64,000 bases of DNA, taken from positions 1-64,000 of the IMG/VR virus record IMGVR_UViG_3300019471_000109; one strand, given 5' to 3'. Below, in pieces: positions 59,466 to 62,379 of this stretch (positions are counted from its first letter, which is position 1; each line of letters starts with the position of its first letter). The notes under the pieces are model-generated. The model was given only the letters and a program-made list of their open reading frames with translations. It did no database searches and was not told the DNA's origin. The translations under genes and the position numbers were made by a program. The stretch comes from a virus.

Positions 59466-61550
59466 ATGAAACAACAAAAAATTTCTGCTTTAATGGTAGC
59501 GTTATTAGTATCAGCCGGTGTAATGGCGGAAGATCCAAGTTTAAAAAATCCACTCGTGTTAGATGGTCAAACTGTAGACACTCGTACTGTGACTGAACGT
59601 GAAACTTACAAAAATACTGTAGTTCCATCTGTAGTTGCAGGACCAGGTCATGTAGTTGTTGGCCAATCGAATATCGTAAATGCAACTGACGGTTCAACTA
59701 CAGTAATTGGTGGTCAAAACTTTGTAGCGGATACTGCTAAAGATGGTAACATTTTTGGTGATGGTTCTAGTATTACAGGTTACCAAAGCCAAGCTGGTGG
59801 TGATAATAACCATCTTATCGGAGAACAGAACTCTGCCTTTGGTATGAATAACCAAGTAAACGGCAATCATACTCATGCTTACGGCGGCGGTAATAATATC
59901 ACGGGCGATCAATCAACTGCTACAGGTCACTACAATTTAATTACAGGCCATAATTCAAGCGCATTTGGTTATGATAATAAAGCTTTAGCTAATGAAACTA
60001 CAGTCGTAGGCCATCAGTCTGTCGCAAGTGGTTTAAATGCTAGCGCATTTGGTTCAAAAGCTACTGCATCTGGTGAATCTTCTTTAGCAATGGGTACAGG
60101 TTCAAATGCAACTGCTGATTCCGCTGTTGCAATTGGTAATGATAGTAATGCAACGGGTAAAAGTTCTGTTGCGCTTGGCGAATCAACAAATGCAACTGGT
60201 GTATTTGCAACATCATTAGGTGATAGTTCAAGCGCGTTAGCAAATGGTTCTGTTGCAATTTCAGTTGATTCAAAAGCTAAAGGTGTTAACTCGATGGCTA
60301 TGGGCCGTGAATCTTTAACCACCCACGATAACTCAGTTGCGTTAGGTTCATATTCTGTTTCTAAATTAGAAAAATCAGTAACTACAGCAACAGTAGGCTC
60401 TAATACATATACAGGTTTTGCTGGCACAACCCCGATTGCAACAGTTTCTGTTGGTGACGAAGGAAAAGAACGTCAAGTTGTTAATGTTGCAGCCGGTGAA
60501 ATTTCTGCTACTTCTACAGATGCAATTAATGGTTCTCAATTATATGCAGTTGCTTCAAAAATCGGCGATGCAGTAAAAGTCCCTGTTGTTGAAGCTGGAC
60601 AAAATGTTACCGTAGATACAACTACAAATGCAAATGGTCAAACTGTATATACAGTAAATACAAAAGATTATCAGCCAGCGATTGATGCTCTTGAAACTAA
60701 AGTAACAACAAATACTGCTGATATCCGTTCTGCTGAAAAATTGATTGATAAAAATGCAAAAGATATTGCTGAAAACACTAAATACATCAAATCAGTTGAG
60801 CAAAAATTACCTGAAGTAAAATCTGGGGATAACACGACTGTTACATCTGAAACTGATGCAAATGGCAAAATTATCTATACAGTTTCAAGCAAAGATTATC
60901 AACCAGCAATTGATGCAAATACAGCTAAAATTACTGAAGTTGAAAAAGAAGCTAAACGTCATACTGTTGTTGAAGCAGGTGATAATATTAAGGTTACAAA
61001 ACAAGCTGGTAAAAACGGCGAATCTGTTTACAAAGTTGAAACTGCTAAAGATTTAACTGTAAATTCTGTTACCACTGAAAAACTTGAAATTAAAAATGGC
61101 CCAAGCGTGACTAAAGATGGTATTGATGCAAACAATACACGAATCACTAATGTCTCTGATGGTGTTGATTTACATGATGCTGTTAACGTTTCTCAATTAA
61201 ACGGTGTTAAATTAAAACAAGCAGTTCAAGGCCGTAAAATTAAAGAACTTCAAAATAGTACAGCTTTAGCCCATAAACGTATTGATACTTTAGATAAAGA
61301 AGTTCGTAAAAATCGTAAACGTACTGATGCAGGTATTGCTGGTGTAGCTGCAATGGCAAATATTCCTCAAGTATACTTGCCTGGTAAATCTGGTGTTGGT
61401 GTCGGTATTGGCCATAAGCATGGTCAATCTGCTGTTGCAATCGGTGCTAGCCGCTCATCTGATAACGGAAAACATATTGTGAAAGTATCTGTATCATTTG
61501 ATACACAAAAATATACTACAGTAGGCGCTGGTTACATGTACCAATGGTAA
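59466..61550 (+). CDS. Trimeric autotransporter adhesin (YadA/Ata-like): signal peptide, Gly/Ser/Asn-rich head repeats, coiled-coil stalk and a C-terminal YadA-type beta-barrel anchor
   Basis: C-terminus AGIAGVAAMANIPQV...GVGVGIG...QSAVAIGASR...VKVSVSF...GAGYMYQW. No TAG. GC visibly higher than in flanking DNA. Confidence 0.8.
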   Translation: MKQQKISALMVALLVSAGVMAEDPSLKNPLVLDGQTVDTRTVTERETYKNTVVPSVVAGPGHVVVGQSNIVNATDGSTTVIGGQNFVADTAKDGNIFGDGSSITGYQSQAGGDNNHLIGEQNSAFGMNNQVNGNHTHAYGGGNNITGDQSTATGHYNLITGHNSSAFGYDNKALANETTVVGHQSVASGLNASAFGSKATASGESSLAMGTGSNATADSAVAIGNDSNATGKSSVALGESTNATGVFATSLGDSSSALANGSVAISVDSKAKGVNSMAMGRESLTTHDNSVALGSYSVSKLEKSVTTATVGSNTYTGFAGTTPIATVSVGDEGKERQVVNVAAGEISATSTDAINGSQLYAVASKIGDAVKVPVVEAGQNVTVDTTTNANGQTVYTVNTKDYQPAIDALETKVTTNTADIRSAEKLIDKNAKDIAENTKYIKSVEQKLPEVKSGDNTTVTSETDANGKIIYTVSSKDYQPAIDANTAKITEVEKEAKRHTVVEAGDNIKVTKQAGKNGESVYKVETAKDLTVNSVTTEKLEIKNGPSVTKDGIDANNTRITNVSDGVDLHDAVNVSQLNGVKLKQAVQGRKIKELQNSTALAHKRIDTLDKEVRKNRKRTDAGIAGVAAMANIPQVYLPGKSGVGVGIGHKHGQSAVAIGASRSSDNGKHIVKVSVSFDTQKYTTVGAGYMYQW

Positions 61551-61563
61551 TTGATTAATCTGT

Positions 61564-61588
61564 GGGGTTAATATTAACCCCATTTTAT
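61564..61588. terminator. Terminator (GGGGTTAATATTAACCCC + T-run)
   Basis: Perfect palindrome plus T-tract. Confidence 0.6.
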
Positions 61589-61614
61589 AAATAGAAATCG
61601 TTTAAGGAATACAA

Positions 61615-62379
61615 ATGAAATTATTAAAAACATTATTAATTAGTTTATCTGTTGCATTAGTTGCTGCATGTGGTAATTTAAGTAAAGTTACAAATGAAGG
61701 TACTTTAGCTGATGGTCATGAACTTGTTTGGCCGAAAATTGAAAAATCTGGATTTAATCATGATGGTTCACAATTTGGCACTTGGCCAAATTTAGATAAT
61801 TTAACAACGGTTGAGTTATCTGGTAAAGGCATGAACAAAGATCAATTACATAATTTATTAGGACGTCCGCATTTTGCTGAAGGTTTATTTGGTGTATCTG
61901 AATGGGATTATGTTTTCAATTTCAAAGAAAATGGTGTTCATAAAATCTGTCAATATAAAATCCTATTTGATAAAAACCATAATGCTCAATCGTTCTTTTG
62001 GAATCCAGTAAATTGTGGTTTAGATAAACAAATTCACGAAGTATCTGCTGACTTTTTATTTGGTTTTGACTCTTCTAAATTAACTGAACAAGGTAAAACT
62101 TATTTAGTTGAATATCTAAAACAATTAACTGATGCTAAATCTTTAACTGTAATTGGATATACTGATAAACTTGGTTCAGACAAATATAACGTGAAATTAG
62201 CAACCGCCCGTGCAGATTCTGTTAAAGAATTTTTGATTCAAAATGGTATCAAAGCAGATATTAATACCACAGGTTTTGGTAAAGATGAAAAACAAGTACA
62301 ATGCGATAACTTTAAATCATCTGAACTAATCGATTGTTTAGCACCTAACCGTCGCGTAGAAATTATTTCTTACAAATAA
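61615..62379 (+). CDS. OmpA-C-like peptidoglycan-binding lipoprotein (Pal/TpgA-like; lipobox LVAAC)
   Basis: Lipoprotein signal, then an OmpA-like C-terminal domain (GYTDKLGSDKYNVKLATARADSV, NRRVEI). Confidence 0.75.
   Translation: MKLLKTLLISLSVALVAACGNLSKVTNEGTLADGHELVWPKIEKSGFNHDGSQFGTWPNLDNLTTVELSGKGMNKDQLHNLLGRPHFAEGLFGVSEWDYVFNFKENGVHKICQYKILFDKNHNAQSFFWNPVNCGLDKQIHEVSADFLFGFDSSKLTEQGKTYLVEYLKQLTDAKSLTVIGYTDKLGSDKYNVKLATARADSVKEFLIQNGIKADINTTGFGKDEKQVQCDNFKSSELIDCLAPNRRVEIISYK

Follow-up and report, generated by a model that had tools for sequence, protein, structure and literature searches.

A predicted trimeric autotransporter adhesin and TpgA-like lipoprotein module carried by T4-like and jumbo phages

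What would a presumed lytic T4-like phage gain from a surface adhesin of bacterial type and the periplasmic partner of such an adhesin? The question is raised by positions 59466–62379 of a 64,000-nucleotide (nt) stretch of viral DNA (positions 1 to 64,000 of IMG/VR virus record IMGVR_UViG_3300019471_000109; this whole stretch is referred to here as the window), where a gene for a trimeric autotransporter adhesin (TAA) is followed, on the same strand and after a gap of 64 nt, by a gene for a lipoprotein resembling TpgA, the partner of the Acinetobacter adhesin AtaA. Identity and purpose taken together, we lean slightly towards the view that the pair is a complete and functional type Vc secretion module of the TAA–TpgA kind that would serve adhesion or aggregation. 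The parts of this view differ in strength: from its sequence, the molecular identity and export of the pair can be assigned with high confidence, while adhesion or aggregation of the infected cell as its purpose is a tentative proposal that we rate a little below even. The features on which the argument draws are as follows.

59456–59460, + strand: ribosome-binding site AGGAG, 5 nt ahead of the TAA start codon, read from the sequence
59466–61550, + strand: TAA gene, encoding a trimeric autotransporter adhesin of 694 amino acids (aa)
TAA residues 1–21: signal peptide, with cleavage predicted after VMA
TAA residues ~60–300: YadA-like head
TAA residues 337–369: neck
TAA stalk: three related beta-rich inserts of ~25 aa each, plus a second neck
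61365–61547 (aa 634–694), + strand: membrane-anchor segment of the TAA, a barrel anchor with C-terminal YQW that includes K641 and D666
61615–62379, + strand: lipoprotein gene, encoding a TpgA-like outer-membrane lipoprotein of 254 aa
Lipoprotein Cys19: lipobox, VAAC
Lipoprotein residues ~58–134: BamE-like domain
Lipoprotein residues ~143–250: OmpA-like peptidoglycan-binding domain

By sequence, the 694-residue protein is a canonical trimeric autotransporter adhesin of the type Vc secretion class, for which export and trimerisation are predicted. The Pfam families YadA_head (PF05658; 3.6e-23, in five stretches) and YadA_stalk (PF05662; 2.6e-14) match above their gathering cut-offs, as does YadA_anchor (PF03895; 1.1e-17, residues 634–694), which scores 64.3 bits against a cut-off of 22.7. 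The Sec signal peptide, read from the sequence as MKQQKISALMVALLVSAGVMA, is followed by ED. Among solved structures, the head and neck match the heads of UspA1, BpaC and CbpF, and the anchor matches the Hia translocator best (9.7e-17), with AtaA-TM (9VNJ_A) at 1.6e-5. Models of individual adhesins are matched below their cut-offs: the NCBIfam Ata model NF033481 reaches 105.5 bits against a cut-off of 2500, and the model of EmaA from Aggregatibacter scores higher, at 172.5 bits, yet under its own cut-off. Among phage tail-fibre families, Pfam Phage_T7_tail (PF03906) stays at 17.3 bits where 25.2 are required, and no stretch of that match is significant. Five residue types (Ala, Val, Gly, Thr and Ser) make up 51% of the protein, and Tandem Repeats Finder returns one trivial 21-nt repeat, located in the head. 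A 137-aa open reading frame (ORF) on the opposite strand (60014–60427) was discarded as a shadow of the conserved Gly/Ala-rich TAA frame, its apparent conservation elsewhere arising only via the TAA.

The lipoprotein combines a BamE domain (PF04355, 6.5e-14) with an OmpA domain (PF00691, 3.9e-17), and its top NCBIfam model is TpgA (NF047726), which is matched over the full length (residues 7–250 on positions 8–266 of 268). The score of 134.8 bits lies under the 350-bit equivalog cut-off, and the sequence comparison places the protein in the same broad family as TpgA and not as an orthologue of Acinetobacter TpgA. The Pal models TIGR02802 (49 bits against 125.35) and NF008067 (33.5 against 261) stay below their cut-offs and match the OmpA domain only. 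The N-terminal domain aligns with that of the TpgA crystal structure (TpgA-N, 9VNJ_B) at 2.2e-14, and an AlphaFold2 model assigns it helices at residues 60–69 and 75–82 and strands at 96–105, 108–118 and 123–130. When the whole model is searched with Foldseek, the OmpA domain dominates (best match 4RHA, 2.3e-11, TM score 0.77) and 9VNJ is not among the best 50; the link between the N-terminal domain and TpgA therefore rests on sequence together with predicted topology. Asp184 and Arg199 of the OmpA-like domain, which correspond to the diaminopimelate-binding Asp and Arg, are invariant across the homologues compared.

In the complex solved for AtaA, the barrel binds three TpgA-N domains on its periplasmic side; Lys64 and Asp65 of TpgA contact Asp3601 and Lys3576 of AtaA, respectively, and Leu80 and Phe81 form a hydrophobic tip; Lys64, the Leu80/Phe81 pair and Asp3601 are conserved across taa-tpgA cassettes (Yoshimoto et al., PMC12523085). 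Alignment to 9VNJ_B places Lys64, Asp65, Leu80 and Phe81 of TpgA at Lys75, Asp76, Leu91 and Phe92 of the phage lipoprotein, and alignment to 9VNJ_A places Lys3576 and Asp3601 of AtaA at Lys641 and Asp666 of the phage TAA, such that all six mapped interface residues are conserved in the phage pair. Lys75, Asp76 and Leu91 are invariant across 32 homologues. In bacteria, 91% of TpgA-like genes directly follow a taa gene and ~80% of the family carries an OmpA_C domain (cluster I, PMC12523085). At the level of sequence, the phage pair has every characteristic of this cluster I partner family, and a complex of the two proteins is predicted.

The likeness to the ata-tpgA cassette that had been noticed in the initial annotation is therefore borne out in architecture, with the same gene order, a partner of the BamE + OmpA type and conserved interface residues, as are the two reading frames it had delimited (59466–61550, 694 aa, and 61615–62379, 254 aa), which are exact, and the reading of the pair as a TAA followed by a TpgA-like peptidoglycan-binding lipoprotein, for which the Pfam head, stalk, anchor, BamE and OmpA matches and the TpgA top model speak. 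Compared with AtaA–TpgA of Acinetobacter sp. Tol 5 and Ata–TpgA of A. baumannii (structure 9VNJ, PMC12523085), the phage pair shares the short gap between taa and the tpgA-like gene, the BamE-like N-terminal domain with an OmpA_C partner domain, and the interface residues on both sides. It differs in that the TAA has only about one fifth of the length of AtaA, in that neither protein is an orthologue (134.8 against 350 bits for TpgA, 105.5 against 2500 for Ata), in the lipobox of the phage partner, where TpgA is described as periplasmic, and in its location on virulent-type phages behind a phage promoter.

When the pair would be made depends on the genetic code of its carrier. The window corresponds to the first 64 kb of a 151,383-bp JGI metagenome contig (3300022582, Ga0248032_1046). 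The backbone is T4-like, with rIIA/rIIB, topoisomerase II subunits, endonuclease VII, RNA ligases 1 and 2, a Dda-like helicase, a family-B DNA polymerase and NAMPT among its genes, and the topoisomerase large subunit is ~50% identical to those of cultured T4-like phages of gamma-proteobacteria. This phage reads TAG as a sense codon: taking TAG as sense raises the coding density from 65% to 84% (ORFs of at least 100 aa), in-frame TAG occurs in 22 of the 59 window ORFs of at least 120 aa (96 TAG in 5997 codons, 1.6%), and a tRNA with anticodon CTA is encoded at 21606–21696 (+ strand). Against this rate, some 15 TAG codons would be expected in the cassette, where none is found in 948 codons, in agreement with the initial annotation. 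We note that the absence of TAG places the pair in a class of genes and does not make it unique, as the remaining 37 of the 59 ORFs are TAG-free too. The genes just upstream of the cassette do carry TAG, seven in a nuclease gene and two in a PAAR gene. According to a published model, recoded phages keep their early genes in the standard code (bioRxiv 10.1101/2021.08.26.457843), and a TAG-free pair beside TAG-bearing genes fits this model.

The cassette also has the layout of a separate transcription unit, the elements of which are listed below.

59372–59400, + strand: sigma-70-type cassette promoter TTTACA-17-TATTAT, 10/12 in the consensus scan
59402–59452, + strand: leader hairpin (59402–59439) with U-run, between the promoter and the ribosome-binding site
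61564–61586, + strand: intergenic hairpin GGGGTTAATATTAACCCC (stem ~61564–61581) with a short T-run, fold z = -3.28
61586–61593, + strand: T4 late-promoter consensus TATAAATA, 21 nt ahead of the lipoprotein start codon
62405–62463, + strand: cassette terminator, hairpin 62405–62454 with U-run, -19.2 kcal/mol, z = -4.61

The promoter of the cassette and its strong terminator, both of which had been proposed earlier, are confirmed as a recurrent motif and as a stable fold, respectively. The motif TTTACA-N17-TATTAT is present in seven exact copies in the window, the cassette copy included, and with one mismatch allowed the 17 matches compare with 4.2 ± 2.2 expected, a number reached in 0 of 100 shuffles. 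The leader hairpin has a folding energy of -14.6 kcal/mol (z = -4.67), a stability reached by none of 200 shuffles, and would stop read-through from upstream; it may also attenuate the cassette's own transcript. A hairpin at the same intergenic position is visible in two of the other phage lineages described below (lineage B, contig L010, and lineage D, contig L009), and lineage B has the same layout built from unrelated sequence, with a perfect TTGACA-N18-TATAAT promoter, a hairpin between the genes and a terminator. A second, late promoter before the lipoprotein gene is a weak possibility suggested by the TATAAATA motif. Across the window this motif is strongly under-represented, with 4 copies where 19.1 ± 4.3 are expected, and only two copies stand ahead of an ORF with a ribosome-binding site, namely 61586–61593 (+ strand) and 44824–44831 (- strand), the latter followed by an ORF that carries TAG; it is not conserved in lineage B.

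The terminator and the promoter of the following unit (62400–62428) are interleaved. The sequence concerned is a 29-mer, TTTACATCCTCATTTGTT(T/C)TTG(G/A)TATTAT, that recurs at 26653–26681, 37998–38026 and 62400–62428 (+ strand) and comprises a promoter and half a terminator. In the 62400 copy, which is the one that was folded (the other two have the 29-mer in common with it), the 5' arm of the terminator falls in the spacer that separates the -35 from the -10 element, and its 3' arm and U-run come after the start site; as modelled, incoming transcripts would terminate at this element and those starting there would not.

Was the cassette captured recently, as its base composition had been taken to suggest? 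The initial annotation described the region as richer in guanine and cytosine (GC) than its surroundings, which holds for the TAA gene (37.6% GC, z = 3.4, where the remaining ORFs average 29.2 ± 2.5% and the window has a mean of 29%) and not for the lipoprotein gene (30.1%, z = 0.3). When GC is split by codon position, the excess in the TAA gene is confined to positions 1 and 2 (GC1 0.519, GC2 0.443) and therefore reflects amino-acid composition; GC content was consequently dropped as a sign of foreign origin after this split. At third positions (GC3), the TAA gene (0.167) and the lipoprotein gene (0.145) lie at or below the phage level (0.182 ± 0.035), and the GC3 of the cassette tracks the resident genome in every lineage, with 0.12–0.19 in the AT-rich T4-like phages and 0.30–0.41 in phages of 39% GC. 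Between lineages, synonymous divergence (dS) ranges from ~0.7 to over 2.5 and is saturated, and the ratio of non-synonymous to synonymous divergence (dN/dS) is 0.05–0.5; these are pairwise Nei-Gojobori estimates on saturated sites. The TAA head of the T4-like phage and that of the jumbo phage are 85% identical as protein and 77% as DNA. The cassette is under purifying selection.

The nearest bacterial relatives bear on the same question. Named close homologues of the lipoprotein are all from Pasteurellaceae (PlpD/Plp4/OmpA family, 51–59% identity), and identity to three bacterial homologues compared directly is 48–57%. For the C-terminal 190 aa of the TAA, a search of 50% representatives followed by cluster look-up gave ten top representatives, among which the six with names are all Pasteurellaceae TAAs, from Rodentibacter, Actinobacillus, Mannheimia and [Pasteurella] aerogenes; five of these are 57–61% identical and the sixth, from Rodentibacter myodis, 44%. 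In Mannheimia varigena (CP016607) and R. myodis (MLHQ01000014) a gene of the BamE + OmpA type directly follows the TAA gene, while the Haemophilus PlpD homologue examined stands alone among housekeeping genes with no TAA adjacent. These bacterial pairs are the nearest relatives of both phage proteins and have the same gene order, and their lipoproteins share the CGNLSKVT lipobox region; the phage lipoproteins differ in lacking the 20–45-aa C-terminal tail of the bacterial ones and in forming a separate clade, and the codon usage of the phage pair is fully phage-adapted. The Hia/Hsf translocator of Haemophilus influenzae (PDB 2GR7, 3EMO) is the best solved match of the anchor and has the PGK and SDNGK motifs in common with it, whereas the phage passenger is a YadA-like head and does not comprise the Hia binding domains. 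By homology, the ancestry of the cassette is placed in Pasteurellaceae.

These results bear directly on the reading of the initial annotation, in which the pair is a recent capture from an Acinetobacter-like host; in its strongest form, the pair would be a passenger with little or no role for the phage. The raised overall GC of the TAA gene and the moron-like architecture, with its own promoter and terminator, are what such a capture would be expected to leave. Rather, the GC3 values at or below the phage level, the saturated dS with low dN/dS, the separate phage clade (99 of 100 bootstrap replicates, see below) and the identity of just 48–61% to the nearest bacteria argue that the cassette is old and long resident in phage genomes. 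The nearest bacteria are Pasteurellaceae, the anchor is nearest to Hia and the Ata and TpgA cut-offs are missed widely. The 'recent' and the 'Acinetobacter' parts of the claim are thereby refuted, and what is left of the passenger reading we regard as extremely improbable.

The cassette is distributed over at least four phage backbones, two T4-like, one of ~152–157 kb and one jumbo of ~227 kb.

Lineage A: T4-like, the type of the window; ~151 kb; GC ~30%; TAA, then the 254-aa lipoprotein
Lineage B: second T4-like type; ~176 kb; GC 31%; TAA of ~740 aa, lipoprotein 78% identical, other flanking genes
Lineage C: phages with 7-deazaguanine synthesis genes; ~152–157 kb; GC 39–40%; lipoprotein first, TAA 2.5–5 kb downstream
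Lineage D: jumbo, with a phiKZ_IP domain in one neighbour; ~227 kb; GC 39%; TAA of 813–931 aa, BamE-only protein of 128 aa, secreted nuclease

A TAA gene lies within 6 kb of the lipoprotein gene in all 27 lipoprotein-carrying IMG/VR contigs, and the TAA gene precedes the lipoprotein gene in lineages A, B and D. A neighbour-joining tree of 30 sequences separates the lipoproteins of lineages A, B and C, as a single bipartition, from those of Pasteurellaceae (bootstrap 99/100), which suggests a single old acquisition followed by spread among phages or, less probably, an unsampled donor. The TAAs are mosaic, since the head and anchor of the window TAA are nearest to lineage D (85% and 79%) and its neck and stalk to lineage B (87%), and variants within lineage A show clean deletions of head repeats and of one stalk module. 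Lineage D carries two very different TAA head alleles on a locus that is otherwise 97–99% identical. Relative to the window head, one allele is 84–86% identical (L033, L036, L040, L041) and the other 37–40% (L034, L035, L037–L039); in both groups the anchor is 66–67% identical to that of the window and the BamE protein and nuclease score alike (nuclease 97–99% to L009), and the divergent head allele carries the Pfam domain ESPR, an extended type V signal peptide. The label phiKZ-like for the ~227-kb lineage is unconfirmed, as it derives from one precomputed phiKZ_IP domain in a neighbour, and PHROGs and Pfam scans of the other neighbours were uninformative.

In a scan of 185,579 species genomes, one locus was found, on a phage-like contig within a metagenome-assembled genome (MAG) of Saccharibacteria. 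This 19-kb contig (L012, CAUTXE010000014.1, in a 'Candidatus Saccharibacteria' MAG) has a lineage-C cassette with neighbours 75–96% identical to viral contigs, and is probably a misbinned phage contig. A megablast search of positions 58400–63400 against 50,697 phage records gave no match, and tblastn searches of both proteins against the same records gave distant or doubtful matches only, namely multi-contig 'Acinetobacter phage MD-2021a' records with an ata-ompA-like pair, contigs labelled Salmonella enterica, Eib, and short anchors of the phiEco32 type. Contig names and IMG/VR identifiers suggest human-associated samples of the Human Microbiome Project (HMP); we take identifiers of the 7000000xxx series to be HMP assemblies.

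With both head alleles and the unit layout in hand, the idea that the TAA-like protein is a virion component, a tail fibre or receptor-binding protein, can be weighed. In its favour are the 'YadA domain-containing structural proteins' of cyanophage virions (PMC9146016), a variation among head alleles that resembles that of receptor-binding proteins, and the weak Phage_T7_tail match at 17.3 of the required 25.2 bits. Such a role is hard to reconcile with the Sec signal peptide (or the ESPR in one allele), with the barrel anchor and its terminal aromatic residue, with the dedicated periplasmic partner, or with an early-promoter unit that is TAG-free and whose neighbours are early and accessory genes and not structural ones. 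By contrast, the neighbouring PAAR gene, which is presumably structural, carries TAG. The virion fibre raised by the initial annotation is therefore a use that we hold to be scarcely plausible.

For the pair as a secretion module, we infer the following course of events, from early transcription by the host polymerase to docking of the lipoprotein. Host RNA polymerase would transcribe the pair early from the sigma-70-type phage promoter, and because the pair is without TAG, unmodified host translation could read it before the suppressor tRNA switches the code. The 694-residue protein would be exported by Sec, its C-terminal barrel would trimerise and insert in the outer membrane, with the passenger (YadA-like head and stalk) exposed on the surface of the infected cell. 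The BamE-like domain of the lipoprotein would dock on the periplasmic face of the barrel and the OmpA-like domain would tie the complex to peptidoglycan, such that the fibre resists pulling forces. The infected cell might then adhere to neighbouring host cells, biofilm or mucosa, and progeny would be freed where susceptible cells are dense.

Conservation of the module under purifying selection in at least four backbones implies that a decorated infected-cell surface is of advantage to the phages. As to the nature of this advantage, the head is near-constant in protein despite saturated silent divergence, which points to a specific ligand, and the variation in stalk length and head alleles is of a sort typical of adhesins; adhesion or aggregation is favoured for these two reasons. 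Several observations weigh against this proposal. Conservation of the head is equally compatible with a binding function other than adhesion; lineage C has the two genes in reversed order and 2.5–5 kb apart; lineage D keeps the BamE domain only, such that anchoring to peptidoglycan appears dispensable there; the leader hairpin with its U-run could cut the cassette's own expression; and a Pasteurellaceae host is a clue by homology only.

The early, TAG-free character of the unit would also suit superinfection exclusion or receptor masking, in which a dense layer of TAA fibres bars other phages and spares progeny from loss on debris or, in a variant, the lipoprotein acts from within the periplasm to modify an outer-membrane receptor of the host. 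The Llp lipoprotein of T5 offers a precedent for such a device, as it blocks FhuA from the periplasmic side. The location in an accessory early region, close to rIIA/rIIB and to a gp5.9-like RecBCD inhibitor, is compatible with this role, and the secreted nuclease whose gene accompanies the cassette in two backbones could degrade any DNA that is ejected into the periplasm. A steric shield, however, needs no 85% conservation of the head across saturated synonymous divergence, and the TpgA-type interface residues indicate that the partner of the lipoprotein is the phage's own TAA. In addition, the nuclease with its seven TAG codons is probably late and not made when exclusion is needed, and PADLOC returns no relevant match on the cassette (generic OmpA-domain matches to MotB and ZorB only). 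We consider exclusion unlikely, albeit the foremost of the alternatives.

Protection from immunity, with the TAA binding complement regulators or immunoglobulin as do Eib, UspA2 and DsrA and the cell surviving until lysis, draws on the distant matches to prophage-borne Eib TAAs, on the UspA1-type head resemblance and on the human-associated samples. The short latent period of a lytic phage limits the gain, no specific similarity to immunoglobulin-binding or factor-binding segments is seen, and identity to Eib is 32–35% and confined to the head repeats, so that we regard this role as very unlikely. The Eib proteins of lambdoid prophages of E. coli are likewise phage-borne TAAs with signal peptide and anchor, yet they are lysogenic-conversion genes of temperate phages, and the Eib records found show no TpgA-like partner. 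Alternatively, the lipoprotein might be the main actor and strengthen the link between outer membrane and peptidoglycan against vesicle shedding or early lysis, with the TAA secondary. Invariance of the diaminopimelate-binding Asp184 and Arg199 and the possible late promoter before the lipoprotein gene alone are consistent with envelope stabilisation of this kind. Yet the jumbo lineage lost the OmpA domain and kept the BamE domain and the TAA, and the lipoprotein gene occurs without a TAA gene in none of the 27 viral contigs; a purely stabilising function seems to us slightly less probable even than immune protection.

The surroundings of the cassette form an accessory early region of the T4-like genome, with rIIA/rIIB close by. 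Immediately upstream, 59164–59364 (+ strand) encodes a 66-aa homologue of the T7 gp5.9 RecBCD inhibitor (Pfam PF25708, 3.9e-13), preceded by a PAAR-motif ORF of ~95 aa (58874–59158, + strand) that is complete only with two in-frame TAGs taken as sense; the standard-code ORF list holds only its last 52 aa. We liken this ORF to the T4 gp5.4 spike tip and presume it to be structural, the tested evidence being the Pfam PAAR motif only. At 57715–58446 (+ strand), 1 kb upstream of the cassette, lies a secreted Endonuclease_NS homologue with a signal peptide and seven in-frame TAGs, and a TAG-free homologue that is 69% identical directly follows the BamE gene in the ~227-kb lineage (L009 11246–12034; L032–L041). 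Two unrelated backbones thus have this nuclease gene in linkage with the cassette. Envelope-directed accessory genes also occur elsewhere, with an SPFH/Band-7 protein in the window (25693–26628) and an 866-aa P-type cation ATPase in lineage B (L010 2280–4880).

Regarding the identity of the residue inserted at TAG, the CTA suppressor tRNA, of 91 nt, has a long variable arm and resembles tRNA-Ser in sequence (GGAAG..TGGCAGAGCGGT..), and 4 of the 7 in-frame TAGs of the nuclease gene align to Ser in the TAG-free homologue. From these two observations, TAG is probably read as Ser, and not Gln, in this T4-like phage; serine is never named in the main recoding survey checked. A release-factor gene and an ArfA gene lie just past the window end. 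Also past the window, the ribonucleotide reductase large subunit (L001 17465–18853) is called as three fragments of 285, 64 and 82 aa, a fragmentation that in-frame TAG codons or inserted elements may explain.

Known phage-borne relatives place the cassette in context. Homologues of yadA in virulent phiEco32 and in Salmonella phages FSL SP-058 and SP-076 (PMC3728262) share a YadA anchor, the absence of a lysogeny module and a position away from the tail genes, and their anchor is 44–46% identical to that of the phage TAA described here. They differ in that only the last ~105 residues of the TAA are matched, with no matching head or stalk and no TpgA-like neighbour. Phage morons are independent promoter-gene-terminator units spread among phages (PMC3594210). 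The cassette conforms to this description, as it comes with a promoter and a terminator of its own, is inserted amid unrelated genes and is differently flanked in each of lineages A to D; it departs from it in that morons are defined on prophages and benefit lysogens, whereas the cassette is found in presumed lytic T4-like and jumbo phages. In bacteria, TAA–TpgA cassettes are well described, BamE-only partners included (PMC12523085), and a 2026 survey of 644 TpgA homologues in 1,383 genomes leaves phages unmentioned. Literature searches combining phage-borne TAA with TpgA, jumbo phage with TAA, and Haemophilus with jumbo phages found no earlier description, and a complete TAA and TpgA-like pair in T4-like or jumbo phages is accordingly an unreported setting for a known module.

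TAA–TpgA cassettes have hitherto been known only as bacterial adhesion and virulence modules, and the compact natural TAA–anchor pairs of these phages, at 640–930 aa, are candidates for surface display. For uncultured recoded phages, the homologies provide a clue to a Pasteurellaceae host. If the purpose of the pair is exclusion, it would represent a new kind of exclusion device; if it is adhesion or aggregation, phage infection would be tied to biofilm structure and to colonisation by Haemophilus- and Aggregatibacter-type bacteria. We offer, as a speculation that is doubtful at present, that several unrelated Pasteurellaceae phages re-programme the infected-cell surface for transmission: an early, peptidoglycan-anchored adhesin would hold the cell in biofilm or near susceptible neighbours and, late in infection and after the code switch, the linked secreted non-specific nuclease would let progeny escape the DNA-rich matrix ('stick, then release'). 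If true, this would constitute a new class of phage auxiliary function, with a module exchanged between T4-like and jumbo phages.

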